This document shows positions 7,230 to 43,002 of a DNA stretch of 64,000 bases, piece after piece. The number at the start of each line of letters is the position of its first letter. The stretch's first letter is position 1. The notes under the pieces were generated by a model. It did not search any database and had not been told where the DNA came from. It worked only from the letters and a program-made list of their open reading frames with translations. The stretch is from Paecilomyces variotii (lineage: Eukaryota): NCBI GenBank assembly GCA_004022145.1, contig RCNU01000007.1; one strand, given 5' to 3'. The translations under genes were made by a program, and so were the position numbers.

Positions 7230-9326
7230 TCAGCTAATGATCTGTCGTGCTCCCTCCTTGCCGAGCACACCAGGTTCCTGCGGTTTGGGACTGCGGTCTC
7301 GGCCTTTCTTGCGGCTCAGGAACGAGAGCATGCCACCGCTGCCAGCCTTGCCCTTCCCACCAAGACTCTCATATCCCTCAGCAGGCAAAGTGGAACTCTG
7401 GTCAGCTAGTTCACTCCAAGGAGCGGTTTCATCCAGGACCATTTGGACGCCACCACCCTTGCTCGGTTTACGCGTTGACCCCTTCTGGCGAGGCAGAGGT
7501 CGAGAGAATGATGTGACAGGGGGTGGTGGAGGGGGTTGTCGGTCCGGAGGAGAGGATGGAGACGGTTCGGGCGTCGTCCTACTCTGGCTGAGTGCTTCTC
7601 CAAGCGGCGAAATGTTGTCGGCTGGATTTGATCGGCTCATGGATCCCTCTGTCCGAGGACCAGGGGAGCCTCTTCCAGAATCTCGGTCAGAAAGCTGTCT
7701 TGAATGGGTAGAGCCGCCCTGGGTCGCGGCCTCTTCGGGATTCCTGTAGAAAAGTCAGGTCTCTTCTCTCGAACGAAACTTCTAGCAGGTACTTACATCG
7801 TCGCGGCGAGTGCAGCTGCGGCGTTTCTAGGATCAATTGAGTCAGAAAAGATACATTTCCCGCATTTATATGGAAAACGTACCCTTGGTAATGGACAGTT
7901 GTGTAGTCAAAAGGTTCAAACATCGTTTCGATCATGCGATGAAGTTCATCTTCGCGGATTTCCTTCGCGGTGGCATCCTCCCTCAATTCCGCTCGAGGCT
8001 TCTGCCGCCGTGCCCTAGCTTCCAAAGGAGCTTCTTCCAACAACAGTTCCTCCAGATCATACGTTGCATCAAAGTTCGTCTTCTCACTCGACGGTGTGAA
8101 GATAGGAGGTATCTGTTTCCTTTCCAGCTCTTCAAAGTCGAGCTCAGCAAAGAAGGGATGAGACGTGAAGGTTTCAAATCCGGCAGCACCAATTCTCTTT
8201 GACCGATCCTTTTCCATTAATGCAGCCATAGCTCGCAGACACGGAACAGAAACGGCTGGGTTGGTGACATAGTATTTCGGCTGGGCCCGGATAACGTTTT
8301 CGCTTAAGCTCTCCTGCGAACGGCCGTCGAAAGGTCTCTGTGCTGCGTGTTAGCTGTATAGTCGCCGGAACAGAAGCAGTTTGGACACGGACCTTGTTGT
8401 ATATGCACTCATAGAACGTAACACCCAGCGACCACCAATCTACCTCGCAGAGGTATCCGTTGCCTTCATAGACTTCTGGAGCCAGGTATGCTAGAGTTCC
8501 GGACTTGCTCGTGAGGGGTTTTGAGGGCTTGAAATCAGAAGCCACGTTCTAGATCAGATGGAACTTGTTAGAGATGATCGTGTTTCGTGGACTCGTAAGG
8601 ACTTACAAAATCAGCCAAATGCACATGGCCTTCGGAGTCGAGCAGCACGTTATCGGGCTTCACATCTCTGTGCACAATGCCCTGTCCGTGGATGTATCTC
8701 AATGCGCATCCTAGCTCTGCCATCCAAAATCGCACTGCTTCCTCCGTAAAAGACTTCCTGGAGATATGGAACCGGAGATCACCACCATTCATGAGATCCA
8801 CCACAATGTAACTTCGCGACAGTTAGTTCTGGGAGGCAGCTGAGAGGGACTGCTAAGGTGTAGCGGGACGTACATATATTCAATGTCCTGGAAACTGTAT
8901 CTCAAGTTGCATAGGAATGGGTGGTTCAGATGCTCCAGCATCCTCCTTTCCCGGATAATATTCCGTACGCTCTCTGATCGAACCACTGTCGAGTTAGGAC
9001 AGTCAGCCGGTAGTTCTTCCCATCCATGAGCTCTTTTTGTTCCAACATACCCTCTTCTTTCCGAATATATTTCAAGGCAAAGGTCAAGCCAGTATCTTTC
9101 CGTTCCACGATACGGACCTTGCCAAATGCTCCCTTACCAACGACCCGCAGGAGGCGAAAATGGTTCAGGTTCACTGGAAGGAAGCCAATGTCAGTCCACC
9201 TGCCCAAACATAACAATTATTCCCCAATGGAAGCATGCCCTCGATGAGGCATCCCACAGAGCCAGTGGACCGCAAACACGAACCTTCATCGGTGAAAACC
9301 ACCGGCTTTCCCTGAGAGTTACCCAT
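7230..9326 (-). CDS. AGC-group Ser/Thr protein kinase, YANK/STK32-like, multi-exon
   Basis: Start [14 protein letters not shown] followed by a GT donor; motifs [36 protein letters not shown] and tail [15 protein letters not shown]. The ORF pieces join at GT-AG introns. Confidence 0.88.
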
Positions 9327-12300
9327 CTCGACCTGTACCTCGGATGGACCAGGCGCTCATTCAACAATTGTCTCCTCTTGTCGGCATTCCCGGACGGCTA
9401 GGAAGTATCCGACTATGACAGAGGCAAACCTGCAACGGCTGGCAAAGGATCGCAGCCGCCGGACGGAGGGGGGTTGTCAGAGGTCGGTGGGCGACGTGTC
9501 GGATGGGATGGCTTGTTCTCGGCTGAGAGGGAAGCTGGGTCGAGGACCAGAAGGTTGAGCAATTCGAGTTTGGGGATAATCCCTGTAAGGCTAGGCCGGT
9601 CAGCACGAAGAAACGGGTTCCATGAGAGACCTGGGCTGCTCAACGGCCGTATTGAATGGAAAAAGTCACGGTTGACTTCCCGGACAGCCCCAGGAGTCCA
9701 GATGGACGAAGAGACAAAGAATAATGCTCGGAACTTACCCCGTACTTCGCTCGGGGCACGCCTAGTACAACTCGATGTGGAACTCCACTGACGATGACAA
9801 TATCTCCGGCAGCTTGGACACGCGCAATGGGCGTTGTCAGGAGCACTAAGGGCCAGCGAAGTGTTGCGCGGAGGTGCAGTTATCGCAGCGGGAGCGGGAG
9901 CGGGCGTTGTCTCCCGTCAGTCACACAGGAGAACAGAACCTGTCGACTTGCTGCTATGCGGTCCAGTCAGAGTCGAAGGAGACCTGTCCTACGTAGACCA
10001 GATAACTTGCTCGACGGCGGCGGTCGTTGCGCTGGACGGAGAGAGATCAGCAAAAACGTCGAGGACCATACACGAGACCCTCGTCGGAAATCTTAGCTTT
10101 CCCCTACGACTTCTCGGGGGAGGCGGTCTATCGTGACGGGGCTCGAGACCAAAGCACCTGGAGACGGCAACCAGCAGTGAATGAAGGCTCAATGGTCTCT
10201 TGTCGCGCGCGAAGTGGCGCCTTGAGTGTCGAGCATTGCCAGAGGAGGACGGGGAGAACGCCAGGCGGCCGCTTAGACCCACGAGGGGGGAAAAGATGCG
10301 AGGCTAAACAACCACCAGCAGTGGAACCGACAGCCCACCAGCTAGCGGCGCATCATAGATAGATCGCGAAATCGGGACAAGACGAGATGACCAGGGGAAG
10401 GGAGCTTGTGTCTAGTGAGGGAGAATGAAGGGGAGAGAAGAAGGTTGACCACGTCCCCAGCCCCGGAGAAGATGATCGATGCTAACGAGATAGTATCTAG
10501 AGGTATAACTAATGGGCTGATTGAGCCTCCTTCGTGTACATATATGCATGCAGCCTGTCCCGACCGGTATAATACTCTACTCGTATTATTCTTCTACTCT
10601 AGGGCATCACTATCTACTCTAAGGACCACTGTGATGGGACCACTTGGAGAAACATTCAGGCTTCTCCGCTGGTCTGGCAGATCCTCCATCGAGTCGTCGA
10701 CCATGATTGCTGCTTGTTTCTGTAATCCATCGCTTGTCCCCCTAAATAATAATTCCCGGCTGACGGGGTGACCCCCTTGACAGAACTCGATCGAGGTTAC
10801 ATCTGTTACCAAGCGGCCAAAGGGAAGTCCTACATACAAGAATAGATACAATCCTTAACCATCCCATCACCCATAATGGATGTTTATCTGCTGACCGCTG
10901 CGACCGAAGCTCGTCTCTCCTGAGTCCTGAGCATTCCTCCTGGTAGATAGCGTTGGGGCCGGCTCGGCGTCCTTTCTCTTTGCAGTCGATCTGCATCCGC
11001 AGCTCCAATCACGCATGGAATGCTTCAGCAGCCGCCGGTCGGGCGCGTGGCCGCCACGTTTTCAGTCACTGGCTGCTGGAAGTTCAAAGAAAGTTGAAAC
11101 GCTGAAGATACTCGTGATGATACACGGTTCCCTAACACCGAACCAGGGAACTGGCTGAAGGGGAGTGGACTTATTGACGCCGTAGCCGACGCTTAAAATA
11201 ATATGACATGGGCCATATAATATTGTTGTCGCATGAATGGTTCACAGAACCCTGAGCTTCTGAAAGGACTGGACAGCTATGCTTGTTCTTAGTGTGACGG
11301 GTCGAGGGATCACTCTCCTGGTCAACAGCAGCAGCACCCAGCAAACTTTCTTGCCTTGCTATTACTATCTACCATTGAGAGAAATTGAGGGTGTCCTCTG
11401 ATTTTTTCACGATGGCGCCCGTCAATACGGACACGACCTGAGACCTGGCGCAACGGGCAGGATCAGCAGCAACCGAGCGTTGACGGAACACCTGTCATAT
11501 CCAACCATCCAGCCACCTAGTGCCGACCGTCGAAGCAACTAACTATAATGATCACAAGTGATAACGACAGTTTGATTCATATTAGTATAGTTTGATTACT
11601 ATGACTAGTATATCGTTTGCGGCTCCAGACAGGATGCTCCTCCCAACCGTTAACGTTTGGATCGAGGCTCTCGAGAGCATCAAGATTCGGGGATCCACCG
11701 CTAGGGAGGATTAAACTCGGCCCCCCGGACGGCTGTTGGCGTTCGTCCTATCCATCCTACTACTCTAAATTGGCAAACGCCTGTTGCGTTCGCATGAACT
11801 CTCAAGACAAGACAATTTATGATCATCACTGGGACTTTTGCACAGACCTGCGAGCATAATCACACTCGAGTCCATAGTTAAGCACCCGAGAAGACCCGGG
11901 ATACGATATACGAAACTCAGAGTCAGCTCCATTTCCCCCTAGCGCTCACTTGGCCCAGCAGCCACAGCTTCCAGAAAAAGGCCCCCTTCCATGCAGGGGC
12001 GCGGTTGCGTGGCATCTTTTTTCAGCGCTGCATGCATCTAACCAACTTACTAGTTGTGTCACGCAGGGGTTGGACCGATGGAATCGTTAGTGCTCTAAAC
12101 TAACCCGGCCCATCTACTATGAGTTTGGCAGGTCGACTCGAGCCTAGTTTTAGTCTACTCTACTCCGTACTTCGTACTACGACTTCTAAGGTTTCTCTCG
12201 CTCTGAAATTGGCGGTCACCTTATTATCCATATTATCATCCTATTCAGACTGCTCCATAGGACTACTTCACTAGCAATGTCTTTTGGTCGGTAACATCCA

Positions 12301-13816
12301 CCTGTGACGTATCGTGGCTCCATAGATTGTTGCTTGACAGCGGATACAGGGGAGCTATTTACTACTGAGAAAAAAGAAAAGAGAAGAAAAGAGAAATCAA
12401 CTCTATCCAAGGCCATCGATAGGAGGTAGTCTTCCATATCTAGCTAGTATCCGTTTTATATGACCTTCTTCCAGAACGACAACCCTGCTAACAGCTCGCC
12501 TCTCCTCTTAATGATCGACCCGGGACAAGCTTTCGCGAAGCTTCAACAAAGAACCGACAACCCCTGGGTAGTGCCCCAAGTGGATCTGTTCCATCATCAT
12601 CATTATCGTCATTAGAATATGCTGTCTCCATTAGAGATCCATTCCGGAGCTTTTCCGTAAGGAAAACACAGCGATGATTCAATAACGCCTCCGACGCAAG
12701 ATCCGATCAAAATCAAATACTCTAGAAGATAGATAGACAGGTAGCCAGACAGACAAGTACCATAATCGTAAACGCATCAAACCAGCAAAAGCTCACTATT
12801 TCAAAAAGAAAAAATACAAATGCAATAAAATAACTCAAATCTACCTATTCCGTACTAACATAGAGCCCTAAACTCATCTCCTCCTTACATATACATATTA
12901 GTAACTAAGTCCATCCAAGATCGACAAGACATCATCATGCATTATATCAATGGAGGCAAAAAAAAGACCCCCAGAAAACCCTAAATTCGAAATACCGACT
13001 CTCACTCTCATATGCCGACACTTAACTAAGTACCCACCTCCCCTAAAAGGGACGAGAGTAAAGTAAACAAAGCACAATCTGAAACTAGAGCAAAATCGAC
13101 GTCTAATAAACAAAGAAATTGATCTAGATATCTAGTTAGACCAAATAACTAACTAAGTAACTAGACTAAGTACTTAGTTAGAGACCCAGTCAGTCGAAAC
13201 TGGCCCTTCTAAGTTAACTTAGTTAAGTTATTTAAAATGAGGGAAAGAGAAAAAAAGGGATTTTGGATGGAGAGCAACTCTTAACTTAACTACTCCGTAA
13301 AGTAGTTGGTTAGTGCACTGTTTAAGATCGTCCTTCCTTTTCTCTTTCCTAGCTTATAAAGGACTGTATCTACCATCTCTTTTCCTTTCTCTTGTTTCGT
13401 CTGTTATCTTTCTGCTTCTTCTTAGAGGTCCTTGGGGCTGCAGTATAAAGAAGATGGAGGAATGAAATGGAAAAATGGAGTTCTCTCTATCAAAATCTAT
13501 GTAGAGTTTATCACCTCGTCCGTGTGTCATGTCGTCATGTCGTTATGTTACAAGAATATATTGTGAGATAAGATGGATCGCAGTATTTAGAGTGGAGTTT
13601 GACGCGAGAAGCCATGCTTCGAATGATCCATCGCCTATCCATGTGACTTCTATTTACCATTCGTATCATCTTTACGCGACATTAAGTGATGGGGTTAGGA
13701 CCGATCTATGGAGCTGCGTCTACGCTGTAGTCGGGTCAGAATATTCCGCTTTTACAAAAGTCAGGAAGCCAGATAGAAGAGGCCAATCACATATCCCATA
13801 TAGATGACACCAGGCC

Positions 13817-26320: not shown

Positions 26321-28576
26321 ATGGCAGCAGTATTCATACCTCCTTCGCCGCGGACATCCCTTGCCATGTCGACTCGACGAGCTCCTCTCGCGAATGTGCC
26401 CAATGCCGCCAACTCACCCCACCGGACTGGGATCGCTGCAATGAAGCGCTCCCGGACAGCGGGCTCTCAGGTCGATATCCCTTATGGCCAGCCTCCCCCA
26501 AAGAAACAACACGTGGACCGAGAGGAGTTGGAACCACGGTCACCGACTCGACCAAAGACGACGATCTATCCAAGCGCAGAGTCCAAGTTCTTCACCAAGC
26601 GAACCAACAATGCTCAGCCAAGTGCTTTTGAGAAGAAGCTGGTAGCAGCTCGGGATAAGGAACGGCTATCACAGACCAAAGGGGTCAGATATGAGAAGAC
26701 ATCGGCGGAGACCCTCGACAATATACGGCAGTGGCAGAGACATTACCGCAAGGCATTCCCGCAGTTCGTATTTTACTTTGACAGCATCCCCGAAGATGTT
26801 CGAAACAAATGCTCAAGACAGGTGACGGCTTTGGGTGCGGTAAGTGACTATTTCGTTGGGTCGTCTTATTGGTTCCTTTCACTTGTTCTAGGGGCTCGTC
26901 CTGTTCAATGCCTCGCGGGGCATGTGAATATAGAAACATTCGAGCGTTTAAATTCAATGCACTCCTCGTTTCCATCCTACGTGCTAATGAAAGGTAACAG
27001 CGTGAGGAAAAATTCTTCTCTCGTACTGTCACCCATGTCGTTACGACTCGCCCTATACCCCCCGAGACCGACGTCCCTGCTGCCACCGAGATGAACGCTA
27101 CGACAGCGATGGAGCAACAGTCTGTCGATGGTCCTGTTCAGACAGTTAATCCGTCCTTGCTTGAGAAGAACGCGGAACTCAGCTCACATATGTCGCTGAA
27201 GTCGAGAAACCCATTCGATAGACGGGCAGATGCAGATCTTCGACGTGATCAAGGTGGACTGGATGTGCTTCACAGGGCTCGCCAAATGGGTATGAAAATA
27301 TGGGCTTTGGAAAAATTGCAGCGGATGATTACTACAATCAATGATGGAGATGCCGCACTGTCGAATCACTTAGCCCGCAGTCACACGGTTGGAACTGGAC
27401 GAAACCGAGGAGACACCGATCTATCTCAGGTCCTTCGAAACGAGCTTAATGGCCCTTCAGAACGTGATCCTTCCTCGTATATGAAGGATATGGTCATGTT
27501 CAAAGGGCCGTTTATCTACGTTCACGATATGGATGAAAAGACGCGACCTGTGATGGTTAGAGAATACCCCAAAGTTGCAAAACGCCAGGATGGTGCATGG
27601 CCGCAATTTCGAAGCGCTCCACTGGGTAAATGTCCTTTCATCGACGAGCCACCGTCGAGGAAAGAAATCGAACGGGCGCGCCTTCAGAAAGAGAAGGAAA
27701 AGAAGGCTGCCGCTAAGATACAGCATGACGCTGAACAAGAGAGCAGGAACATGGATCCTCCGGAGCGTGCAGTTGTGAAAGCAGAAGCCCAGGAGACCGA
27801 CGTTGAGACTGTTGCACCTGTGAAGAGAGAGGAAAGCGTGCCCGCTTCCAAGGAGACGGAACCACAAAAAATGCTTCCCGTACGACCTGCCTCTCCTAGG
27901 AAGAGCTCAGAGAGCTTTATTCCTCCTAACTTTCCACGCGCCGGACCATTCCACCTCGGCCGGGAACCCGCTGCATCTGGTGTCCAGCCATCCAACATCA
28001 CGTCAGCGATTCGTTCTCAGATGATTTCCTCTACCGCTGCTGCCCCTGGAGCAAGGGCTGGTGTCAGTAAGGAAGTTCACGAACTGAAAAGGAAAGTTCT
28101 TGAGAAGAGCAATGGCGGAATCTCGACAAGCGGAGTGCCCTCGTCCCTCCGCACGACCGATCTGTCAGGAGCGGCAAAAGCAGCAAGGGGACAGCCCACA
28201 AAGACGGGCAGAGGGAGGACGCAGGATGCTCTTGCCAACATTAATGAAGAAGAAACGACCCAGTCGGAGGATGACGACGGCAACAAGCAGCGCGCAGCAG
28301 CTAAGAAAGCTAGCAGTCAGAAGAAGCAGAAGGAAAAGAAGTGGGATCCCAAGCCGGGCTATTGTGAAAACTGTCGGGACAAGTTTGACGACTTTGACGA
28401 GGTAAGTCGGCGTGGATTTCAAGAATTGTGTGTGCTGCGTTGTGCTGACCATGCTTTAGCATATCATGTCGAGAAAGCATCGCAAGTTTGCGACGACATT
28501 GTCGAACTGGGCTGAGCTGGATGCGCTCCTTTATCAGCTCGAGCGTCCTTTGAAGGAAGAATACGACTATATATAG
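26321..28576 (+). CDS. nimO: Dbf4/Dfp1-type regulatory subunit of Cdc7 kinase
   Basis: Motif N (WQRHYRKAFPQFVFYFD), motif M (FKGPFIYVHDMDEKTRPVMVREY) and a C-terminal zinc finger KPGYCENC..HIMSRKH after splicing. Introns at about 26840-27000 and 28402-28459. Confidence 0.9.
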
Positions 28577-30538
28577 GAAGGGTGCATATATTCGTCGCCG
28601 TTTGCAAGATCATCAAACTCATATCTAGCGCCAAGTTCCCAACTGGCAGCCGTGCCGTGACACATCTGCTGCCACTAATTTTGCGCATCATGCTCCCATT
28701 CATTTATTCCTTCTCTTGTCTGCCTCGAATCTGGTGGACACGAATATCCATTGCATAGGAGTTGTCTTACTGTCGCACTTAATTTTGAGCTTTCGATTCT
28801 CGGCGGCAACGGCATGCATGCATTCTGTGGCGTCCATTTTACTATCATTAGGCGTCTGCCGCTTACGATCCACAAGACTCATACGGCCTGGCCTTTATAC
28901 TACTTTTTCTTTTCTACCACCTACACTTTCTTCTATCTTCTCTTCTAAAAAGTTTCACCATTCTCTTCTTTCTCTCCTTGATTACGCGGTGATGCTTGCA
29001 TTCGTGCTTTGAGGCGTGTATTCATAATTCTGGCGTTGGTATGTACAGGTTTGTCTGTCCTCCGCGAGACTATATTATCTCGACGGAAGCGAATGTCCCG
29101 TTTGATGGAAACGTTCATGATGACAGGGGAACCTACTACGACATCATGACTGTTCCAAATGGGGAAAGACCACAAGAGTATGGGGTCTGCTTCGTGGCGG
29201 TTTCAATACAGGAAAGTGATATTTCATAAACGTAACATTCCGTGATCTCAAGGCCGGAAGAGAGAATCTCCCAACATACTATTGGGGACTCTCGCATTCG
29301 TCTCGATCGAATGATGAGGGGGGTTTCCATTTCCATACAGTAGAGCTGACCGCTGGGTGATACCTGATGGGGGGGATAGTATTGGTTTCTGGTTTTGCGG
29401 CTGACTTTTCTTTGTACTCTGCTCTTATTCTTAGTTAGCAATCGAATAACTTCAACTGCACCTGTACTAAGTAGGGGCATTTCCCTAGCCAATAACCGGT
29501 AATAATATTTAGTAAGATTCGTCGTCCAAGTCCCTCACCAGCGACATGCTCAGACAGATGTGTCAGCCCAGATACTAACTAACTATTCGGCATCGGAAGC
29601 AGGGGAATTCAATCCATAACTACCGAGTTCCGCCTCGTTTATCATTCTAAATTCTCACACGCAACCTTCAAACTCTAGAGTAGTTAGTCCGATCCGAATG
29701 GATTTCGGGACTAGTAATCGTTGCGAACCCGTAGATTATCCTGGAAATACAGCATGTACGATGAATTCGACCGAAGCCTCTAATCGATCCCTGCCTGACT
29801 AGATAGATTACTTATCCTAATATGGGAAAGTAAGATAAAGGAGGGAGAATAGGAGATGATGTGATGCGGAAAGAAGTGGGATGAGTTCATTTGTAAAACA
29901 AAAGAGAAAGGAAAGTCTCTTCCTGCAGGGATGTTTGAGGTCCATACATATCGATATCGTATAATGTGGTTCTTCCTGTCGTGCTGGAAGAGATATGTTC
30001 CCATGTCTGGGGAGGGATGGCTTTTTGTGAAAGTTACCGTTGCTGGGTATGAGGTATCTTTTCCTCTGGTTGAATCTATTGATAGATTGTTCTTCAGTGG
30101 CGGCTTTATAGTCCTGTTTGGGGGTGCGTTCAAACTGATATACTTGATACCATATTAGTGAATCTTCATGACCACAAAGTTCGCGGCTACGGTCTCTGCT
30201 TGGACGGGAAACCCTATGTCATAGCTAAGGACGTCGCTGGAGAAGTACATAGTTAAACTCGGTTCTGGACAAACCACCGCCAAAGTAGCAGACGCTAGTC
30301 TTACAGACAATAAAACTGCTACATTTCATCTTAATGCTATTGCGAAATATGTTAGCATTTGCCACTTAATAGGCCTTGTAAATGTAGTTGTCCTGTTATT
30401 ACGCCACTGTACCATCCCAACTTCCCAAAACGGAAATCAACAAAACACAACACAACACATCAGCCCACCATAAAAAAAATACAAAAAAGCTCACATCCTC
30501 ACCTCTCCTTTATATCAGAGAGCTGTGAAGATGCTACG

Positions 30539-30733
30539 AAAACCCCGCCTTGCTTTTGGCGGGCAGGGTTTTACCTTTTCTAGGAACTGAGGAACATTTC
30601 TGACGGTCACTGGTGCCCAGAGCTGCTGTTTTTGCTCTGACGCCCTCACGCCGACCCCGAGGTTCGAACCAGGGAGCCTCTAGCTAGATAGAGCGGTGGG
30701 TGGGTGGTAATCCAACCACTGCGCTATCTGGAC
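30539..30733 (-). ncRNA. Degenerate tRNA-like Pol III unit (pseudo-tRNA, SINE-like element or structured ncRNA)
   Basis: A box TAGCGCAGTGG (30726-30716) and B box GGTTCGAACC (30670-30661). Acceptor and T stems are mismatched. Two hairpins follow, then the first TTTT at 30542-30539. Confidence 0.5.
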
Positions 30734-31999
30734 TCCGCTGTTAAATGGGATTATGTTATTCTGGAATATAGGGGGCTTTTTTTCTTTGTTTGCGGGACCT
30801 GGAAGGGGAGGTGTCACGTGGGGATAGATGACCCGAGAGTTTTACTGAGAGATGTTATATTGGATGCATTGGTACGGTAGAGAAATCTAGTAGTTGTGAT
30901 TGCTGTCGTTAACTGTCCTTAGTAGCAATCAAGGACACTCGAAGAAGTTCATTCGTATCTGGGGTTTTCTGCATATCTTTTCACTGATCTGACTGTTGCA
31001 TACTGCTAATGGGAAAGCAATCCTGCAGCTGGTAGAGCTCTCCTAAGCACTAGCTGTCCAGGGGGGATCCCGTCTGTATAAGTATACGTCCTGGGGTCCA
31101 CTTGGTTTATAGCACCCCTGATATAGATCAGCGTACCGCCAGAAGAGGCTATTTAAGCTAATAATGCATAACCTCTACATAGAATATTATCACTGGCCTA
31201 ACTCACTATGGTTGAAGTGCAATAATTTGCTGCCCATAGACTATATGTCAATATCCTTTGTTAACTACGATGAGCGTATCTACCCAGTAGCAAGTCTATG
31301 CATTAGCATTCCTACTATTTCTATACAAGAGTAGATCGGCAGCAGGACTTTAAGACTACGTACTTATTAGGAGCGTATTTCCGGACACTGGCCAATTTAT
31401 GGTATTTCATTTCGATGGTATATTTAGCCATGTGACCTTATTCTTGCTGAGTTAGCTATCCATTTCTGCTATGACTGGGAAAGATCAGTCTGGCGATTAT
31501 GTCCTATGACTATATGCTCTGTATTATCCGGTAGTGTAATGTGTAATGTGTAATGCCTTTCTTTCTGTTCTGAGAGATGGCTAGACACTGAGTAAAACTT
31601 TTGGGATATATTGCCCGTTGAAGACGTATCAGCATCTATTCGGAGACGTCAAATTGCCGACCAGTGCAAGATATTCCGCTTACATATCGATCTGCAACGG
31701 AGATCCTGGCTAGACTAAGTTATTGCACCATATTACATCTTATTGCACAAGCCCTTAGGCCGCGCCAGAGGCGCGTCCCGGTCTTGCTTATAGAACTGAT
31801 TTCTTAAACTATTATAGTAATTCACTGAATAAAAAGCTATATATAAACTTATAAGGTATAAATTATAAGCAGATAGAAATAATAGTTAATAAAATTAATT
31901 AACTAGTTATTTTGCCTATAGTTATATTATTAGAGATATTAAAAAATAAATAGAAAGAGTTATTTATAATATCTTCTTTATATTATATCTTTAGATAAG

Positions 32000-33652
32000 A
32001 TAGCTCTATGCTGGGCTATATATAATAATCTTAGCTATAGATAGCGGCCTTACCTTTTACTACTATATATTACTTCCTTATTATTATTATTATTATTAAA
32101 TTATTGCTAATATCTTTATCTATTTTTAAGTTAAATCTAGGTTTATATTAATATTTATATTAAGATTAATTTATAGGTTTAGATTCTCTTTCAGACTTAG
32201 TCTTAGCCTTATCTTTAAAATCCCTATTAATATTAGGGGTATTTATAAGGTTCTTTAGCTTAGATTTAAAACTAGGTCTAGGATTAGGGGTATTAATAGG
32301 ATATTTTAACTTATATTTCTTATGCTTAGAAATATCTGTAGAGTTTTTTAACTTAGGCTTTAAAATCTCTATAAAGTTCTTTAGCTTAGATTTAAGTAGA
32401 TATTTAGGCTTCTTAGGGGGTATTCTATTTTCAGGTCTAGTATTAATTAATATAGATGCTAGTTAGTTAAGATTAATAGCTTTCTAAGGGCTTAAATAAG
32501 TATTAGAGAGCATATTAAAAAGGATATTAAATAAGATATTTAATAGATTATTAGATAGGACTAACTGCTATAAGGCTTAGAGAGTTATATTTTAAGATAT
32601 TATTAATTATAAGGCTAGGGGGGCTAAATTCTAAGAACTTATTAGCTTCTTAAGAAAGATAATAGGTTGCTTTACTACTAGCTCTATAAATTTAAATACT
32701 ATATTATAGTAGTATTTTAGGCAGGCAGATATTATTTTAGTAATTTATTCTATTACTATAAACTCTCTAAAGATTTAAAAAAAAGATAGTAAGGTAATAG
32801 AGATATAGAGAGCCGCCTTATTTAGATATAGATAAAACCTAATAAACTCCCTATTAACCTCTATAATTTAGTTAATAGTTAGGAGCTTTATATATATCTA
32901 ATACTTATTCTAGGGGATATTATAGCCAATATAGAAGATATTAATAATTATCTTATTATCTACCTTATTATTATATATAGTAATCTTAATAAAAAAGATT
33001 AGGTGTTTTATATTATTTTTAGGGGTAAAATTAATTATCTAGCTAATTACTTATCTATTAAATAATAGTATTAATAAGATTAAATAGGGGATATAGCTAG
33101 TATACTCCTCTAAGCTAAGGTTACCCTAGTATAAAATATACAGATAAGCTTTAATTATAATCTTAAGGGCATTTAGTAGGTCCTATTTAATAAATAAAAC
33201 CCCTATATATACTATAATAGTATTAGGTAAAAATTTTAATAAGGGGTTATTATAATACTTAATTATTATATTAATAAAGTCTATAATAATTAGATCCTTA
33301 AAATAAGTATATTCCTTTATAACTGTATAGAAGTTAAAGACTAACTATAAAGCCTTTAGCATTGCCTATACTAAGTTTAAGACTATAATACCTATAATAG
33401 TATAATAATTAGTATTAATAGTAGCAGATATAATAATAAAGTAATAGAGGGGAATTAAATTAAATATTATTTAATATAAATAAATAACTATAGTCTAAGT
33501 AAGAAATAATATATAATAGAGCAGACCGACTTACAGGTAAAATATCCTTTATATATAGAAATTAATAGCATAATCTTAGGGAGATAATCTTAAAGAAATA
33601 ATTTTAATCTTCTAGAATATCTTTAGCAGTAGTATAATTTTAATAATAGCAT
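32000..33652 (-). pseudogene. Second Helitron ORF relic downstream of RepHel, intron-containing, possibly tandem OB-fold
   Basis: Candidate ATGs at 33652/33572 and a GTAAGT donor at about 33534. De-RIP reading gives beta-rich segments KYYNNP..DTIVV..G.LFV, GDPS.EEY..P and WNKYW..KLPT..IVEV.GEF.G, then a low-complexity tail. The fold assignment is inference. Confidence 0.4.
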
Positions 33653-33679
33653 AATCTTAATTACCCTATTAAAGATAGA

Positions 33680-36600
33680 TTTTAAACAGTCCTATATTAT
33701 TAGAATTAGTAGAGTCTAATTTTATTAAATCTAATAATATAGTTCTTAATAGATAAAGTAGGTCTAGGGCTAAAGCTAAGATTAATAAAGCGGGTAAAGC
33801 AAGTAGATTAAGGGGTAAAATAAAGAAATACTAAAGAACCTCTAGATAAACCTTATTAATAATTAATTAGGCTTTATTATCTGGGGAAAAGAGAATTAAT
33901 AGATTTTAGGCCTAAGTTATTTATAATATAATAATATAGAACTAACTATAAATAAAAATAGAGGTTTATAGATTTATCTTAATATATTTTAAGAACTATT
34001 CTTAAGATTTATTAATAATTATAGTAAAGGCTAGCTAAATAGAGAACTAAAGGCGGTATAATATAAAATAGAACTTATTAAGGGCTATTATTAGCTTAAT
34101 ATAAAAAATAAGATAAGTCTCCCTATTAAAATTATTATTATTAAGGCAAATTTTTAAATAATAAATAATTATATATAGCAGGATTAGCTAGATATTATTA
34201 TAAAATTCTTTTAAGGAATTTATATTATATATTAAGATAAGAGGAACCCCTATCTTTACCTACAGCTTAGCTAAAGAGATCTTAATTAAAATAATATTAT
34301 AAAAAATTTTAACACTAATCTTTTTATATAGCAGACCTTTATTAAGGTTATAAGTATTTATTAAGTATAGTATAATAATATCCCTAGGGAATTAAGCTAG
34401 CAGGTAAATATTAATAGATTTAATATCTATATTTTAAGAGGTTAGAATAATATAGCTATAAAAAAATCTTAAGTTTTAAAAAATAATCTATAGGTTATAA
34501 GGTGGGTAGATATAATTAATAAACTTATCTATATTAATAATCTAGTAAATAAAGGATAGCAGTAAGATATTGCTTATTAACTCTAGCTTATAGCTAAATT
34601 ATAATAGCTAATAAATTAATTAATAATTCTCTTAATTTATTATCTTTAGCTATATATTTTTTATAAGCAGTAATACCTATAATTAGTTAAAAATATAAAT
34701 ATATTAAAAATAGGCTTCTATAATCTATACCTAATTATTATAAAAAATAATAAGTAAGATTTATTAGAAATTATCTCTTAAAATAGTTAAGATATTATTA
34801 AAGGGCTTATTATATCTAGGCAGGTTATAATAAAGATCTTATAAGGTATAATCTATAGTATTATATATATAATAATATATTATTATTATCTTATCCTAGA
34901 TAATTAAAGAGATTGCCTAGATAAGGTCTATTAAATATAAGCTATAGTTAATATAGTAAATTAACTCTTCCTTAATATTAATTAGAATATAGAATTATTT
35001 ATAGGCAATATAACCTTTAAGAAGAAATAAAATAGCGATCCTTATTAAGGTAATATAAAGAATAATCTTACTTTAAGACTAGAGGTAGCTATATAATATA
35101 ATATAAAGAAAGGTCTTTCTTATATCCTTAAAACTATAAAAGAAGAAATAAGTATCTATTAGGGTATTTATTATAGCTTTAATAATTATATTAAAAGCCT
35201 AATACTAGTTATAATTTAATTATAAGATAAGATCCTCTACTTATTAAATAAGTTTAATATAATTATAGCTTATCTTTTAAAGAATCTTTAGATTTAGGGC
35301 AGCCTTATATTAATTATTTAAATAAGGAGAGAGCTAATAATCTTTTAAAATCTTCTCCTCTATTAAGAGATTAATAGTAATAAAAAAAAAGCTATAATTA
35401 TAATAGGGAATATAATTAAAGATAAGATTATATTATAATTAATTATACTAAATATAATACTCTAGGTTATTATAGATATTATCCTTATATTTCTCTTAAA
35501 GCCTGCTAATATTTAAAAGGTCCTTAAAGATTATTATTATAAAGAATAATTAATAAAGTTAATAGCTAGTCTCTATATAATAGGCTTCTTTAAAGTATAA
35601 ATCTTATTTATTTTTACCCTATAAGATTCTATAAATATAATAGGCCTTATAAAATATTAGATAGATATAACTATCTATAGTCTAAATATTCTTAAAGCTT
35701 ATAAACTTATAGACTATTATAAGCAGATAGTAAAAAAAGTAAACTTTCTTATAAAATAATAATACCTACTTTACCTAATTAATTTAAAAGGCTTTTATTT
35801 AATAATATATCTATTTCTTTTTTTTCTATTTTTAAATAAAATAGTAAAGAAAGTTATAGAATAATAATAACTTAAAATTCTCTATATTAGCTTTATATAA
35901 TAATAGCAGTAAAAGCTTACTTACTCTCTTATTAATATTATATTAGAGAAAGGCTAATAATTTTAATAATACTTACTCTAAATAATTAGTAAGCTTTTTA
36001 ATAGACGCCTTTATATTATAGATAATAAGGTAATCCTCTAATAGGTAAATATAGAGGGTATAAATATTAGGACTAATCCTATAGGTAAAAAATTTAAAAA
36101 GATACTAAATTACTTCTAATACCCTAATATAATAGCTATTAATATAATTATAAATCTTATTAATACCTATATTTAGCTCTATAATTATATAGTTAAGTCT
36201 CTTATAGATATATTTATATAGGTATTTAATTATCTTAATACTGCTATATATCTTTATATTAATATAGGCCTTATACTACTATATCAGGTAAGGGTTATAG
36301 AGAATAACTTATTTATTCTTAATCTCTAAGAAGCTATTTACTTTAATTAAGTCTTAAATTTAAATCTATATCTTTTTTTCTTAGCAATACTTAAGATAAA
36401 AATCTTTAGTTAAGATAGTTTCTTTATAAAAGGGCTTAAGAAAATTTTTTAAGCATCTTAATACCCTATTAATCTCTTTTATATAAGGGGCCTTAGGATT
36501 ATAATAGCTATATAATTAATAGATTAGATTAATAGTAATAATATTATAAAACTTAAGATTCTGCTATTTCTAGAGTTTTAGCTATTTAAAGGTTGCTTAG

Positions 36601-38800
36601 CTATTAATAATAGGCTTAGGCTTATTAATAGTAAAAATCTCTATATAAATAATCTTATTAATATATTTAATAATAAATATTTTAAAGCTGCCTTTAACTT
36701 AAAGAAGAAAATAAATATAAAGGAGATTATATTTCTAATATTTAACTACCCAGATATTAATAATATATTCCCTAAAGATTAAATCTTTATATAGCTTAGA
36801 TATAAGTTTTAACAGCTTAATATAGAATATATAGGCTATTAAGTTAAGATAATTTTCCTAAGACTAAATAGGAACGCTAGTTGCGTCCCTAATAAGTTTA
36901 GCCTAAATCTTATTCTAATATAGGTTTACTATAAAAGTAATAAAAAGATAAGGCTTTTTAAATTTATAGATAATAGCTATAGAGTCTTAATAGTACTATT
37001 ATATAAAGCAATTACTACCTATAAAGCTTAATAGAAGAATATATAATTTATTTATATTAATAGGATTAGTGCTAATAGCTATAGTAAGAGCTATTTTAAT
37101 AATATTATATCTCTTAGCTTAGAGTTTATTTTAGTACTGTTTAAACTAATTTAACTTATACTACTTAATAAATAATTATAGATTTATAATAAATTATTAA
37201 TAAAGATAGCTAGTATATTATACTATATTAAAATTATCTAGGTATTAAAATAAAAGCTAGTAATAATAAATAAGTAATATAATTTATATCTATTAATATT
37301 TTTAGCTTCTATAGATAAGACTTAGCAGCTAAAGCTATTAGTACTAACCCCTTTTATCTTAAAAAAAAAAGAATATATTAGAGGAGAATATATAGCAGGT
37401 GCAAATAGTAGATTAATATAAGATATTATCTTAAATTAATTTACTAGATTATTAAGGAGCCCTAGAGAGCCGATATAATTTTCTCAGTTTTATCTTTATA
37501 TTATAGCTATAAGTTATATTTAAAAATAACCTAGGGTATATTATTATTATCCCTAAAGTAGATATTATCTTTTAATATCTTATTATTATTAGATATAATA
37601 TCTATATTCTTTTTTAACTAATTAGATATTAAGTATTATAAAAAGGGGGATTTAGTAAGGTAAAGATAGATATTATAAAAACTTACCTAATTATACTCTT
37701 TTATAATATTTAAAATAAAGCCTATTAGTTCTATTATTGCAGTTGCCAGATTATAAAGATACTTATTATCTTTATTAAGGATTAAATATAACTATAGGAT
37801 AAGATACAGGTACTATAATCCCTAATTAATATAATATTTAAGGATATTATAAGCATAATAAAAGACTCTTTAAAATAAATTAATCTTATAAAGTAATATA
37901 TCTAATTACTATATAATCTTAATATATATCTAAGGTATTAAATTATATTCCTGTTATATTTAATCTGCCTTTTAAAAATTAAGAAAATAGAGCTATATAA
38001 AAGAGAGTATTACTCTATATAGGGGGCTAATTTAGTAATAAAATACTCTCTATAATTAAAAGACTTACTAGTATTGCTAAGGGGCTAAATATTAGTTATT
38101 TATATAGGCTATAGAGGTAAAGGCTAGTAATATATTAATTAACTAGATATTTTTATAAAAGAGAATTAACTTTAGATTATTATTATTAAGGTATTTTTTT
38201 AATAATAATAGCGGCTCTTGTATTAATTCTATATTAAGGCTAGGCTTTATACTACTACTCTTATAGTAATAGTTAAAGATATTACTATTAATAATAATCT
38301 TGCAGCTTTAAAATAAAGCATAATAATATTTATATTAAATATTTATATAGCTAAAGAATAATTATTACTACTCTATTATTAATAAATAAAAGGCCCTAGA
38401 AATAGTTTTAATAGCTTATAGTCTAATTTTAATTATTTTTATAGGAGGTCTGCTTTAAGATATTTTAAAATAATAATTATAGATATTATAGATAGTATTC
38501 TTTATAAAATAGTTCTAATATTAAGGGTTTATATAATATAAAGAGTAATATATAGGCTATATAGCCTCTAGGATAGAGAGAAAAGACTACTTATAATTAC
38601 TACTGGATTTATAACTAGGAAATTAAGATTAAGACCTTCTTAGCTAGGTTTACTAATGTATTTAAGCTTAAAAATAAAATTATATATAATATAAACTTTA
38701 TAACAGCATATAAGATAAGTTAGAGATAATTAAAACAGCCTAAGAAGAGAACCTACTAAAGAATCTACTAAGGAATCTAATTAATTTAAAAGAGGAGATA
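33680..38800 (-). pseudogene. Helitron Rep/Helicase (HUH endonuclease + PIF1 helicase) relic
   Basis: De-RIP reading, in order: CxxCxA..CC zinc finger (~38300); FITFTANPxW (~36915-36955); VEYQKRGLPHVH (~36705-36750); KYLYKYIYKG (~36195-36230); GPGGTGKTF (~35105-35140); IIWDE (~34890); RLQFPIRLAFAMTINKSQGQSL..VFTHGQFYVAMSRV..VYPEVL (~34060-33835). Some small frameshifts occur. Start and end are approximate. Confidence 0.9.
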
Positions 38801-40924
38801 TTTTATAATAATAACTTAATTATAATATAATTTATAAAAAGATTAATAAATAATAATAAAGGCAATAAAAATAATTATCTTATTAAAGTTATTAAAAATA
38901 TTAATAATAATATATAAGGTAATAAAGTAGATTAAATCTAGCTGTAAGACTAGCTAGTAGAGATAAGAGATATAAAATAAGCCCTTATTCCTGCAATAAT
39001 AGCTATTAATACTTAAGTTATTATTAGACTTAATAATAAGCGCTGCTGCTATATATAACTATAATACTAAGATTATTTAAAACTTATATATATATTATAA
39101 CTATATCGCATATAGTGCCTATAATTATTAACTTATTTAAGCTATCTTTTAATAATCTATTACTAGCAGCTATTATAAATAATATTAGAAGATAAAGAGA
39201 TATAATAGTTATATTAAATATAATATTAGAGTATAGTTTAAGTAAATATAATAAATAATTAATAGGTAGACTTATATAAATACCCTATTATATATAACTA
39301 GGCCTTAAATATATATTTAATACAGCCTCTTTTAGCTAACAGATAATATAGATTATATAGATTATATAGATTATATTAATATATAGTACTGCTAGAAATT
39401 ATTAAAGATAATTTAAATAATCTTAAAAATATAAGCCTTATATTAGTATTAAGATAGCTAGAATAGCAATATATTAAAAAATTAAGATAAGATATATTAA
39501 AAATTTAAAGTAAAATATAATAGAGAAATAAGGCAAACTGCAATAATTTATCTTAGGATTAATATCTAGGAATAAGATAAGATAAAATAATCCTAGGGGC
39601 TAGAACTAATCTTATAAGAGATATTCTATCTATTATCTAAAGAGAATTATATAAATATTATAAAATCTTATTTTAATATCTTGCTAATATACCTTATTAC
39701 TCTAGAATTTATTATATAATTAGAATTAATTAACCCGCTATAGAGAATATAGCCTTAATCTCTAATACTTTTAATACTCCTAACCTAACTTTAAATATAT
39801 CTTTTTTTAGTAAAGTAACTAGGTAAAAATAATTATATTAATAGCCTATATAGTAATTAAAGATATTATCTTATTAATTAAATATATAACCCTAGTTAGA
39901 TCTTATTAGAGGTTATATATAGAAATATAAAAACTAATATAATAAGTATTCCCTTCTCTAGATATAGTTAACCTCTTACTAACTAATATAGCCTATTAAT
40001 AGCCTAAATATACCTTACCTCCTGCTAAACTAAATAAACTAAATAAATTAAATAAGATTAAAGACTTAGGGTATAAAGATAATAAAAGGTTATAGATAGA
40101 GGAATCTTAAATACTATTAAATATATCTTATTTTAATAATTATAATTATAGTAAGATATTTAATAATAATAATAATAATAATAATAGCACTTACTATATA
40201 CTAATACTAGCAGGTATTAATATTAAGCCTATTATTAAAGGTATAATAATTTATACCTAGATTAATAACTATAGGATAATAGTAGTTTTAGATAGTAGTA
40301 ATCTTCTTAAAATATTAAATATATTACAGTATAATAGCTATTAGGGCATTATTAAGGTATATTAATAATAGCACTATTAGCTCTAGGAGTATCTTATATC
40401 TCTAGTTTTATTTCTTAGCCAGTTAGCACTTTATAATTAGTTAGAACTTAAATTAATTAGTATAAGGGATTTAACCTAGATATTAATATTATACTGTAAT
40501 TTAGTATTATACAGTAATATATATATTTTAATATAGTAGGTGTAGTAGTAGTATTATAGGAAGATATATTAAGACTTAGCATAGAGTCTTTAAGCGAGTA
40601 GGTATTAAGAAGGAAGAGAAGGATATTTAGCTTTAGAGCTCAGAGTAGAGCTAGAGGAGAAGCTTTAGCTGTAAACTAACATAATAAACCAATAATAATC
40701 TGATGCTAAACTGATACTGAATAATAATAGAAAGATAAAGCTGATTATTTTATTCTAAATAACTGAAAGGTATCTCCTTTCTGTCCTTTGCTGCTTTACT
40801 TATAGACTTTTTAAAGACTTTAAGCAGAAGTATATAATCTCTTAACTAATTATATTCTTTATACCGATCCTCCCCACTATAGTAGTAGTACTGACTATAG
40901 ACATTTTTAATGTTTATATCTCTG

Positions 40925-41210
40925 GTTGTTATGCCTAACTATACTGGCTTAGCATATATATTTAGCTAATAAACAAAGCCGGAGGTTAGCGGGTCTAAGA
41001 GATTTTAATATTCATACCTTTAATTGCTATACCTAACTATACCAGCTTAGTATTAGCTTCTAGCTATTAAGAGGCCCTAAAAGTTAGTGGGTCTAAAAAG
41101 TTTTAATATTCTCATAGATAGTTATTCTATATAATTATACCAATTTAGCATTTACTATCAGCCAATAAAAAAACCTAAATCTTTACCGGCCTGAGGTATT
41201 TCTACACAAT
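40925..41210. repeat. About three degenerate 98-bp tandem repeats near the Helitron 5' end
   Basis: CCTAACTATAC at 40934 and 41032 with a related copy near 41130; GGGTCTAA..TTTTAATATTC at 40991 and 41089. Confidence 0.75.
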
Positions 41211-41754
41211 TAGTCGCTCTATATAGGCAGGTTCCACATCTCTAGGGATCTAATTAGCCTGAGGGGACTTAACGCTAAAGTTTTATAACATTTACTTAGA
41301 TATTCCACACCACGTCGGGTGCGCTAACTAGCAGACGTCTCGGAAGCATAAGCAGACCAATGGAAAATATAAGTACATGGAGGTTCAGTAATTATGCGCA
41401 TGATTATAAATGAGCACGACAATAGCCCCGCGCGTCTTGCCTCTTTTGTCTTCTATCTGCTTCGACTTGACGAGATGGGGTGAGGACCAGGGGAGATTGA
41501 CTGACTTCTTCCGAGTGGGAGGTGGCGTACTCCTGCGGCGGGACCGTACGGTCCGGGAGGGAGGAGATGCATATAATTATTATACCTGTCGCCAGCACGG
41601 TCATGATTTGGAACTTATCGACTGAGTCTGTACCTTTCAGAGTGTTGGTTAACCGAGCTTCATTTATCAAAGTGCTGCCTTCAAGTCTCTTTTTAAGGAA
41701 ACTTTGCGCTCCAAGACTTCCATCTGCTATTAGACTTATACATCACCTAGCAAT

Positions 41755-43002
41755 ATGGCCATCAAGAATGTTGCGATCATCGGAGTATGTTTTCCTGGTA
41801 GCTCTCTTTTTCAGTGAAGTTTTGAATTCATCCGGATTATTTTTCTAATCGTCAGCTTTCATTCATTTCTTGTGACTTGAATATCCGCTGAATATTCCCC
41901 ATGGAATAACCCTGCCTTGTTTATTGTCAAGTCACTATTTGATGCCAAACAATCACTAACAAGTCTGTGCAGGCCGGAGGAAACTTAGGGTATGCAGTGT
42001 CTCCATTTTCCAGAAAGCAGAACTCACAAGCCACCTCTTAGTTCCGGCCAAGGACCATACTAACATAGCATGACTTTCTTAGTCCTTCCATTGTCAAGAA
42101 CCTCACTTCATCCCCTCACAACTACAACGTCTCCGTTCTCTCCCGCCAAGAATCCAGCTACAAGGCTCCAGAGGGCGTCACCCTTATTAAAACTGACTAT
42201 AGCCCCGACTCCCTTGTTTCTGCTCTGAAGGGACAAGATGCAGTTGTCTCCGCTATTACGACCTCCGCCGTCCCTGAGCAGAAGAAGATCATCGATGCTG
42301 CTATTGCTGCTGGTGTGAAGCGATTCATCCCTTCAGAATTTGGATGCGATTCTAGCAACTCGGTCACTCTTCAGAGGGTCCCGCCGTTGAACTCCAAGAA
42401 CCAGATTCGGGAGTACTTGGAGAGCAAGCAGGACCAGATTGAATGGACCGCTATTTACACAGGTTCTTTCTTTGATTGGTATGTGTTCCATTCTGTATAA
42501 CCATATAAGAAAAGGAAGCCCTCTCGTTAGCGTTAAACTGACCAGTCTCACACACAGGGGCCTCAAAGTTGGCTTCCTCGGATGCAACCTCCCTGAAGCC
42601 ACCATGACCATCTTCCCGGCCCAAAAGGACGTCCTCTTCTCAACGTCGACTCTTGACTTCATTGGCAGAGCCATCGCACAGACTCTCTCGCCATCTATCG
42701 CCCCCAAGACCGCCAACCAGCGGCTGCGCGTGCGCAGCTTCACCACATCCCAGACCCAAATCCTCGCTGCTCTTGAAAAGGCTACCGGCAAGAAGTGGAC
42801 GGTCGCGGAGGCAGACCTTGATGCAAGCGTCAAGGATGCAGAGGAGAAACTGTCTAAATCCGACTTCAGCGGCGTGGGAATCCTGATTACTGGCGCGCTC
42901 CTTGATCCTAAGTGTGGGAATAACTTTGATTATAACCCGTCGAACGAGCTCCTGGAGCTGCCGACTGAAGATATCAATACTGTGGTTAAGTCTGTGTTGT
43001 AG
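41755..43002 (+). CDS. NmrA-like / isoflavone-reductase-family oxidoreductase
   Basis: Spliced MAIKNVAIIG|AGGNLG Rossmann motif, ALKGQDAVVS, AGVKRFIPSEFG and WTAIYTGSFFDW; GT-AG introns. Confidence 0.9.

Follow-up and report, generated by a model that had tools for sequence, protein, structure and literature searches.

The DNA analysed here is a stretch of 64,000 nucleotides of Paecilomyces variotii (Eurotiales; GenBank assembly GCA_004022145.1, contig RCNU01000007.1), referred to as the window and numbered from its first letter. It contains an AT-rich, gene-free block (31748-41300) which is very probably a single full-length Helitron of the autonomous type and of the canonical (Helitron1-like) class, carried on the minus strand and inactivated by repeat-induced point mutation (RIP). 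The block is intergenic, lying ~3.2 kb downstream of a Dbf4-like frame and ~770 bp upstream of an NmrA-like frame. The Dbf4/nimO-like protein shared 95 % identity with a protein of Paecilomyces variotii and 99 % with one other protein; the next named matches, in Thermoascus and Rasamsonia, were at 64-68 %. The features of the locus are collected in Table 1.

Table 1. Positions of the predicted Helitron, its recognizable parts and the neighbouring frames in the window
Feature	Position	Strand	Details
Whole predicted Helitron, 9,553 bp, RIP-mutated	31748..41300	-	Filled site in the window and in X17; lacking as a unit in X18, X20 and X14
5' terminus, TC	41299..41300	-	Preceded by host A on the element strand (flank ...GGAATA)
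3' terminus, CTTG (CTRR variant)	31748..31751	-	Host T next (flank TGCAAT...)
Subterminal 3' hairpin	31761..31775	-	6-bp G+C stem CGCGCC/GGCGCG with a loop of 3 nt; distance to the 3' end 13 nt
RepHel transposase pseudogene core (Rep nuclease and superfamily 1 PIF1-like helicase)	33780..37376	-	One frame, no indel required
Helitron_like_N (Rep)	36723..37238	-	PF14214, E 1.6e-8, 35.4 bits (cut-off 28.9), amino acids 1355-1526
PIF1-like helicase	34641..35219	-	PF05970, E 2.8e-16, 60.2 bits (cut-off 25.9), amino acids 2028-2220
HUH motif, now Y-I-Y (TAT ATT TAT)	36711..36719	-	Aligned with Helraiser H593-A-H595
Two-tyrosine motif KYLYKYIYK	36201..36227	-	Helraiser KYLFKYIYK, Y727/Y731
Walker A remnant SFKDIRKTF	35109..35135	-	Relatives GPGGTGKTF
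Walker B remnant LIIXDKI	34887..34907	-	Relatives LLIWDD / LLIIDE
Late helicase motifs	33915..34022	-	KSQGQ-like motif read as KSXEX, and motif VI stretch
Probable N-terminal transposase part	37639..38163	- (frame 3)	P0001 residues 135-312
High-depth stretch	40375..41148		Contig pile-up
Two ~98-bp tandem units, 72 % alike	40905..41152		5' subterminal region
Dbf4/nimO-like regulator of Cdc7 kinase	26998-28515 (open reading frame 27091-28512)		Left neighbour
NmrA-like / NAD(P)-binding frame	42069-42497		Right neighbour

The GC content of the block was 0.214, compared with 47-49 % outside it, and in 1-kb windows GC was 0.19-0.25 across 32001-41000 and 0.38-0.55 in the remainder of the window. TpA/ApT within the block was 1.37 and (CpA+TpG)/(ApC+GpT) was 0.32, giving a composite RIP index of 1.05, whereas the index was -0.46 in one flank and -0.53 in the other; the dinucleotide odds were 0.24 for CpA, 0.16 for TpG, 0.24 for CpG and 1.42 for TpA. 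When thresholds taken as the customary ones were applied (TpA/ApT >= 0.89, (CpA+TpG)/(ApC+GpT) <= 1.03 and a composite index > 0), all 37 of the 500-bp windows within the block were classed as RIP-affected, as against eight of 208 outside it. RIP indices and dinucleotide depletion of this kind were restricted to the block, and the terminal ~100 bp at either end (GC 0.42-0.48) were far less mutated than the interior. No open reading frame (ORF) of at least 80 amino acids with an ATG, GTG or TTG start was found from 30134 to 41403, and the block contained only two stop-to-stop frames of at least 90 amino acids, both at ~32166-32466. The initial annotation, made from the letters of the window, had described an ORF desert of TpA-rich DNA; the RIP indices and the ORF scan establish that this desert is real and far beyond chance.

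The stretch at 32166-32466 was the sole part of the RIP block without stops over 98 codons, and this was true on both strands. It sits amid short tandem repeats with a period of 12-33 in 32138-32557, where contig depth was low in other strains, and it is probably low-complexity rather than coding DNA. Outside the block, a small RIP-like patch was seen at 12751-13500 (GC 0.36-0.37, TpA/ApT 1.36-1.74, (CpA+TpG)/(ApC+GpT) 0.67-0.76), which did not resemble the Helitron block in sequence.

All six frames of 31748-41300 were translated with X at stops and scanned against Pfam at E<=1. Matches were obtained in minus-strand frame 1 only, where Helitron_like_N was followed by PIF1, both above their gathering cut-offs. 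The other five frames gave no Pfam match at this threshold, and no Pfam domain besides the two RepHel domains was detected in any frame, including the 5' 2.7 kb and the 3' 2.0 kb, in a scan whose sensitivity is lowered by RIP. Comparison of frame 1 with all PDB chains gave one distinct match, the Helraiser transposase (7lcc_A, E 6.4e-48), in a single collinear stretch (query 234-1370 against chain 404-1466). A HMMER scan of 1.84 billion representative proteins returned 4,268 matches at E<=1e-3, the best at 1.2e-75. The five best matches tested for architecture all consisted of Helitron_like_N, PIF1 and Pif1_2B; among named matches, one annotated as hypothetical from Trichophyton verrucosum ranked first, and relatives from plants and mites were also among the best. 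Relatives aligned without a frame change from frame-1 amino acid 1309 to 2507 (window 37376 down to 33780), as exemplified by residues 187-1342 of P0276, which aligned unbroken to amino acids 1309-2493 (~1,185 codons). The RepHel order previously proposed for the minus strand was thus recovered, with Rep before PIF1 in one frame, and the Pfam domains, 7lcc_A and P0276 were all collinear with it. The core (amino acids 1341-2492, 1,152 codons) contained 94 stops, of which 50 were TAA, 44 were TAG and none was TGA, as expected from CpA>TpA and TpG>TpA changes.

The catalytic motifs were consistent with the same type of damage. Both tyrosines of the two-tyrosine motif were retained, and the TAT codons of the HUH motif are reachable from CAT, so that reversing C>T would restore the histidines. 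All differences of the Walker A remnant from GPGGTGKTF are reachable by G>A or C>T, and Walker B, the KSQGQ-like motif and the Arg finger could all be reached by undoing C>T/G>A; in motif VI a TAA stop lay at the expected Arg-finger position, a label assigned by eye. Functional roles have been described for the corresponding Helraiser residues H593/H595, Y727/Y731, K1068 and R1457 (PMC4778049). The earlier proposal that the HUH, Walker A/B and PIF1 C-terminal motifs can be recovered by reversing C>T/G>A is therefore supported, the motif codons fitting RIP-type change.

Reversal was also assessed over all aligned positions of 12 relatives by asking whether the relative's residue could be reached from the window codon by T->C and A->G. 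The ancestor-compatible share was 0.47-0.64, compared with a raw identity of 0.22-0.27, in 12 of 12 relatives; the controls gave 0.34-0.41 for equally permissive transversions, 0.24-0.30 for the opposite direction and 0.16-0.20 for shuffled columns. The absence of TGA stops, the gain in agreement upon reversal, the fit of the motifs to the same rule and the lack of indels over ~1,150 codons together identify the damage as RIP. No near-intact sister transposase was found among 266 proteins tested (150 + 116, from a library with one representative per 50 % cluster). The best share compatible with RIP reversal among these proteins was 0.66, over a short alignment, and among the 219 aligned over at least 800 positions it was 0.65, with a median of 0.53.

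Read on the minus strand, the element starts with TCTAAG after a host A and ends with ...CGCGCC-TCT-GGCGCG-GCCTAAGGGCTTG before a host T. The 3' hairpin was hardly altered by RIP; the 66-nt 3' end folds as DNA at -15.3 kcal/mol (z -3.68), a value equalled by one of 200 shuffles. Self-comparison of the block revealed no terminal inverted repeats (TIRs), and no asymmetric TIR of the Helitron2 type was found, 293 of 300 shuffles matching or beating the complementarity between the 5' end and the 3' subterminal region. Insertion took place between A and T and left no target duplication, the empty site being GGAATA^TGCAAT. The features of canonical Helitrons found here therefore comprise a RepHel ORF (as a pseudogene), the HUH and two-Tyr motifs, a 5'-TC, a 3' hairpin, an A^T target without duplication and the lack of a TIR; in canonical elements the hairpin lies ~10-12 nt from the 3' end, as against 13 nt here. 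Helitron2 and Helentron elements have an asymmetric TIR and a T-rich target (TT, TTTT^T/C), with an endonuclease domain in Helentrons (PMC5148889); neither the asymmetric TIR nor the T-rich target was seen here, nor was an extra endonuclease domain (Pfam, E<=1).

The 9-mer TTATTGCAC occurs twice in the host flank outside the 3' end, at 31720 and 31741, the second copy spanning the insertion point. This duplication is probably due to chance.

Public contigs of four sequencing runs labelled as the same organism (X14, X17, X18 and X20) were placed on positions 30700-42300. In X18, X20 and X14, which come from three studies, one contig each (16,729, 9,063 and 6,995 bp, respectively) joined 31746 to 41300, skipping 9,553 bases with one ambiguous letter and reading ...GGAATA^TGCAAT... 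across the joint. Since three strains skip exactly 9,553 bp in one joint, the whole block behaves as one mobile unit. Contigs of X17 spanned both junctions of the filled site (30700-32040 and 41097-42300). The termini predicted in the initial annotation, and the empty site in which 31747 is joined to 41301, were in this way found to be base-exact in contigs of three strains, within the one-letter ambiguity. Between the window and the empty-site strains, the left flank was 2.8-4.4 % different (29-46 of 1047 positions) and the right flank 0.8-2.1 %, and the empty-site strains held only 0.37-0.43 of the flank's words.

The same contigs would also be explained if the polarity were reversed, that is, if the element were ancestral and the lineage leading to X18, X20 and X14 had lost it cleanly, whether excised or deleted. 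In the absence of a target duplication the empty site cannot separate insertion from clean excision, somatic Helitron excision footprints in maize have been mentioned (PMC4289320), and the flank divergence and shared words indicate that the three strains may be one lineage, so that a single event would suffice either way. A copy that carries 94 stops has no means of excising itself, however, a precise 9.5-kb deletion without end repeats is unlikely, and the empty state was seen in strains from three studies; we therefore consider precise loss improbable and insertion into an empty site the better account.

Sister copies of the element were evident in all four strains. The strains with an empty site, X18, X20 and X14, still had contigs on 30 of the 30 bins of the stretch, and the listed pieces were ~88-90 % identical, one of them showing 68 differences over 587 bp. 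Differences were almost exclusively transitions, with transition to transversion counts (as places) of 429:10 in X17, 1309:43 in X18, 1047:50 in X20 and 909:51 in X14. RIP requires repeats, and these copies fit that need, as had been anticipated when the block was first attributed to RIP. In two X14 contigs the 5' end (41300) directly abuts RIP variants of the opposite end (31748) in head-to-tail orientation, and because RIP-type changes are present these junctions can be taken as genomic arrays. A blastn search (E<=0.01) of the 54 kb outside the block detected no further copies or fragments of it, and two scans of metagenome contigs with RIP-tolerant patterns (the 5' terminal 31 nt and the high-depth stretch) gave no matches.

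Loose contig ends were observed at 33926 and 37068, where contigs of X18, X20 and X14 all cease to match and run on into unrelated sequence common to the three strains, which points to shared truncated relic copies elsewhere in their genomes. In X17, joints from 38345 to 33453, 38897 to 36167, 40859 to 32225 and 40884 to 36045 were seen at 88 % likeness, which may be repeat artefacts.

Part of the 5' subterminal region differed from the rest of the unit in contig depth. In each of the four runs, depth at 40375-41148 exceeded that of the adjacent bins by a factor of 10-80; the summed depth, which is not a copy number, was 1098-1669 in X17 compared with 23-119 in other bins, and 9121-11947 in X14 compared with 43-785. 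A G>A difference at position 40827 was present in 19-31 contigs per run, and loose ends at ~40784 and 40863-40881 led into different, shared sequence. The stretch looks like a short sequence common to another, more abundant repeat that was nested in the element or captured by it.

This stretch, which draws many more contigs and has its own loose ends, is also what a mosaic would predict, in which several independent RIP-blurred insertions lie side by side and only the middle 4-5 kb is Helitron; protein similarity was confined to 33780-38163, and fungal RIP blocks of high AT content commonly consist of nested elements. Such a mosaic is highly improbable given that all 9,553 bp are missing from three strains at a single clean joint, that the ends have Helitron features and that X14 joins the same two ends head-to-tail in two contigs, which marks them as the ends of a repeated unit; a nested piece could predate the move of that unit.

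A source of the AT-richness other than RIP, whether native AT-rich or foreign DNA or the ordinary decay of an old pseudogene, deserves almost no credence: CpG was also depleted (0.24) and methylation-driven deamination could do likewise, nothing else speaking for it specifically, whereas CpA and TpG were depleted and TpA enriched, 20-43 transitions were found per transversion among the copies, no indel was needed over ~1,150 codons where ordinary decay brings indels, the stops were all TAA or TAG, C>T/G>A reversal restored the frame clearly better than the transversion control, and RIP is experimentally active in P. variotii (PMC6300479).

Several points weigh against the interpretation of the block as one complete canonical Helitron. 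The initial annotation had described a complete autonomous-type element beginning with a zinc finger; this held for both termini, Rep and the helicase, which is what 'complete' covers here, but did not extend to the opening ~130 codons or more. RIP turns Cys (TGY) and His (CAY) codons into Tyr (TAY), and Tyr is so abundant here that a zinc-finger pattern is indistinguishable from chance. Upstream of Rep, residues 135-312 of P0001 alone gave a match, in a different frame (E 1.5e-7, six-sequence search). As judged from the sequence of this one relative, the match suggests an N-terminal part of the ORF, and the frame change before Rep would then represent either an intron with an N-terminal exon or an indel. 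The ~2.7 kb 5' and ~2.0 kb 3' of the ORF had no recognizable content, and the stretch at 40375-41148 acts as a different repeat, so that the unit may contain foreign or nested DNA. Assignment to the canonical type relies on features of the DNA and on how strongly the frame matched Helraiser. The element ends in CTTG where canonical Helitrons have CTRR; CTTG is a documented variant and not a ground for exclusion, such ends being known from the HELPO2 family of Pleurotus ostreatus (PMC4289320) and from maize Helitrons and de novo Helraiser ends (PMC4778049). The one-letter ambiguity of the joint also permits alternative ends, CT...TTGT at T^G. Finally, because Helitrons leave no footprint, the polymorphism could reflect insertion here or precise loss elsewhere.

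If the element behaved as Helraiser does, its history can be pictured as follows. The RepHel transposase would have nicked single-stranded DNA at the 5'-TC, making a phosphotyrosine link, and unwound it 5'->3', pausing at the 3' hairpin; after a cut behind CTTG, the strand would have been joined between A and T of intergenic DNA without a target duplication, the empty state being ancestral. Read-through or re-initiation would give rise to tandem arrays, as in the model described in PMC4778049. A multicopy family passing through sexual cycles would then be subject to RIP, which turns C into T and G into A, chiefly at CpA/TpG. RIP has reduced the copy to 21 % GC and introduced 94 stops into the 1,152-codon core with the reading frame unbroken, and has changed the catalytic residues (HUH His to Tyr; Walker A Gly to Ser, Lys, Asp or Arg). 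This copy is dead as a source of transposase.

A tentative and rather doubtful extension is that RIP kept acting on this insertion after close strains had split, in which case the locus would be a natural record of RIP in progress. The X17 junction contigs differed from the window at three of 1341 and 11 of 1204 positions (0.2-0.9 %), and the longest listed X17 interior contigs (33190-39370) were 2.4-3.9 % different (15-52 differences each). At several listed interior places a sole X17 contig was present, and the X17 transitions ran in both directions. Alternatively, the X17 interior contigs may be paralogues, or the differences may stem from errors of assembly or from bases miscalled at methylated cytosines in the assembly of the window. 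If RIP were still acting, then, together with the barely mutated termini and the X14 arrays, this would imply that the family was recently active in the species complex, and dead copies might be movable in trans given an intact master in some strain.

A Helitron has thus been identified as the origin of an AT-rich block without genes in a Paecilomyces-type genome. It provides a worked example for detecting transposons that escape ORF-based annotation after RIP, and its base-exact ends and presence/absence polymorphism make it a clean marker. Filled and empty strains would allow the effects of a RIP/heterochromatin block on the nearby NmrA-like gene to be compared. Current understanding of Helitrons or of RIP is unchanged by this element, which is neither surprising nor new in type, RIP-degraded Helitrons and CTTG ends having already been published.

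In P. variotii, the genome is bimodal with regions of ~20 % GC, and RIP has been shown experimentally (PMC6300479). The main text of that study names a Tf2-type retrotransposon as the sole source of the AT-rich regions and does not contain the word 'Helitron', which its supplementary repeat tables may list. The retrotransposon, Tn123, shares with the present element a block of ~20 % GC and CpA-biased C>T/G>A changes, but is not a Helitron. The passage found in the literature on Paecilomyces together with Helitrons concerns maize Helitrons only.

Among characterized elements, Helraiser/Helibat1, a canonical Helitron1 of vespertilionid bats (7LCC), shares with the Paecilomyces element the RepHel order, the HUH and two-Tyr motifs, Walker A/B and the position of the Arg finger, as well as the 5'-TC, the A^T target without duplication, a subterminal 3' hairpin and head-to-tail joined ends (PMC4778049). 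In Helraiser the hairpin is formed by a palindrome of 19 bp at a distance of 11 nt from the end (PMC4778049), whereas the present one has a 6-bp stem at 13 nt, and the 3' end is CTAG in Helraiser and CTTG here. Raw identity to Helraiser is low after RIP, and the element described here is a fungal pseudogene whose joined ends were seen as RIP-mutated genomic junctions, not as circles. HELPO2 of Pleurotus ostreatus is likewise fungal, inserts at AT, has a subterminal hairpin, encodes Rep and helicase in one ORF and ends in CTTG-3' (PMC4289320), but it comes from a basidiomycete and is likened to the present element by description only; RIP is not mentioned in the HELPO2 paper (PMC4289320).

The FoHeli1-5 elements of Fusarium oxysporum and relatives are, like the element described here, RepHel elements of the Pezizomycotina, of 5-11 kb (PMC5148889). 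FoHeli1 copies in F. solani carry the hallmarks of RIP, and tandem Helitron copies have been seen in Metarhizium acridum (PMC5148889). In contrast to the present element, FoHelis have asymmetric TIRs, ends of the form TCAG...ATTTT or TGCCT...CTCCTGT and a TNAT^A/T target (PMC5148889). It has been suggested that most fungal Helitrons are non-canonical (PMC5148889), which places the element described here in the less common canonical class in the Pezizomycotina. A canonical-type Helitron (TC, A^T, hairpin) with a CTTG end thus very probably exists in this group, in which the best-studied Helitrons are Helitron2-like (PMC5148889).

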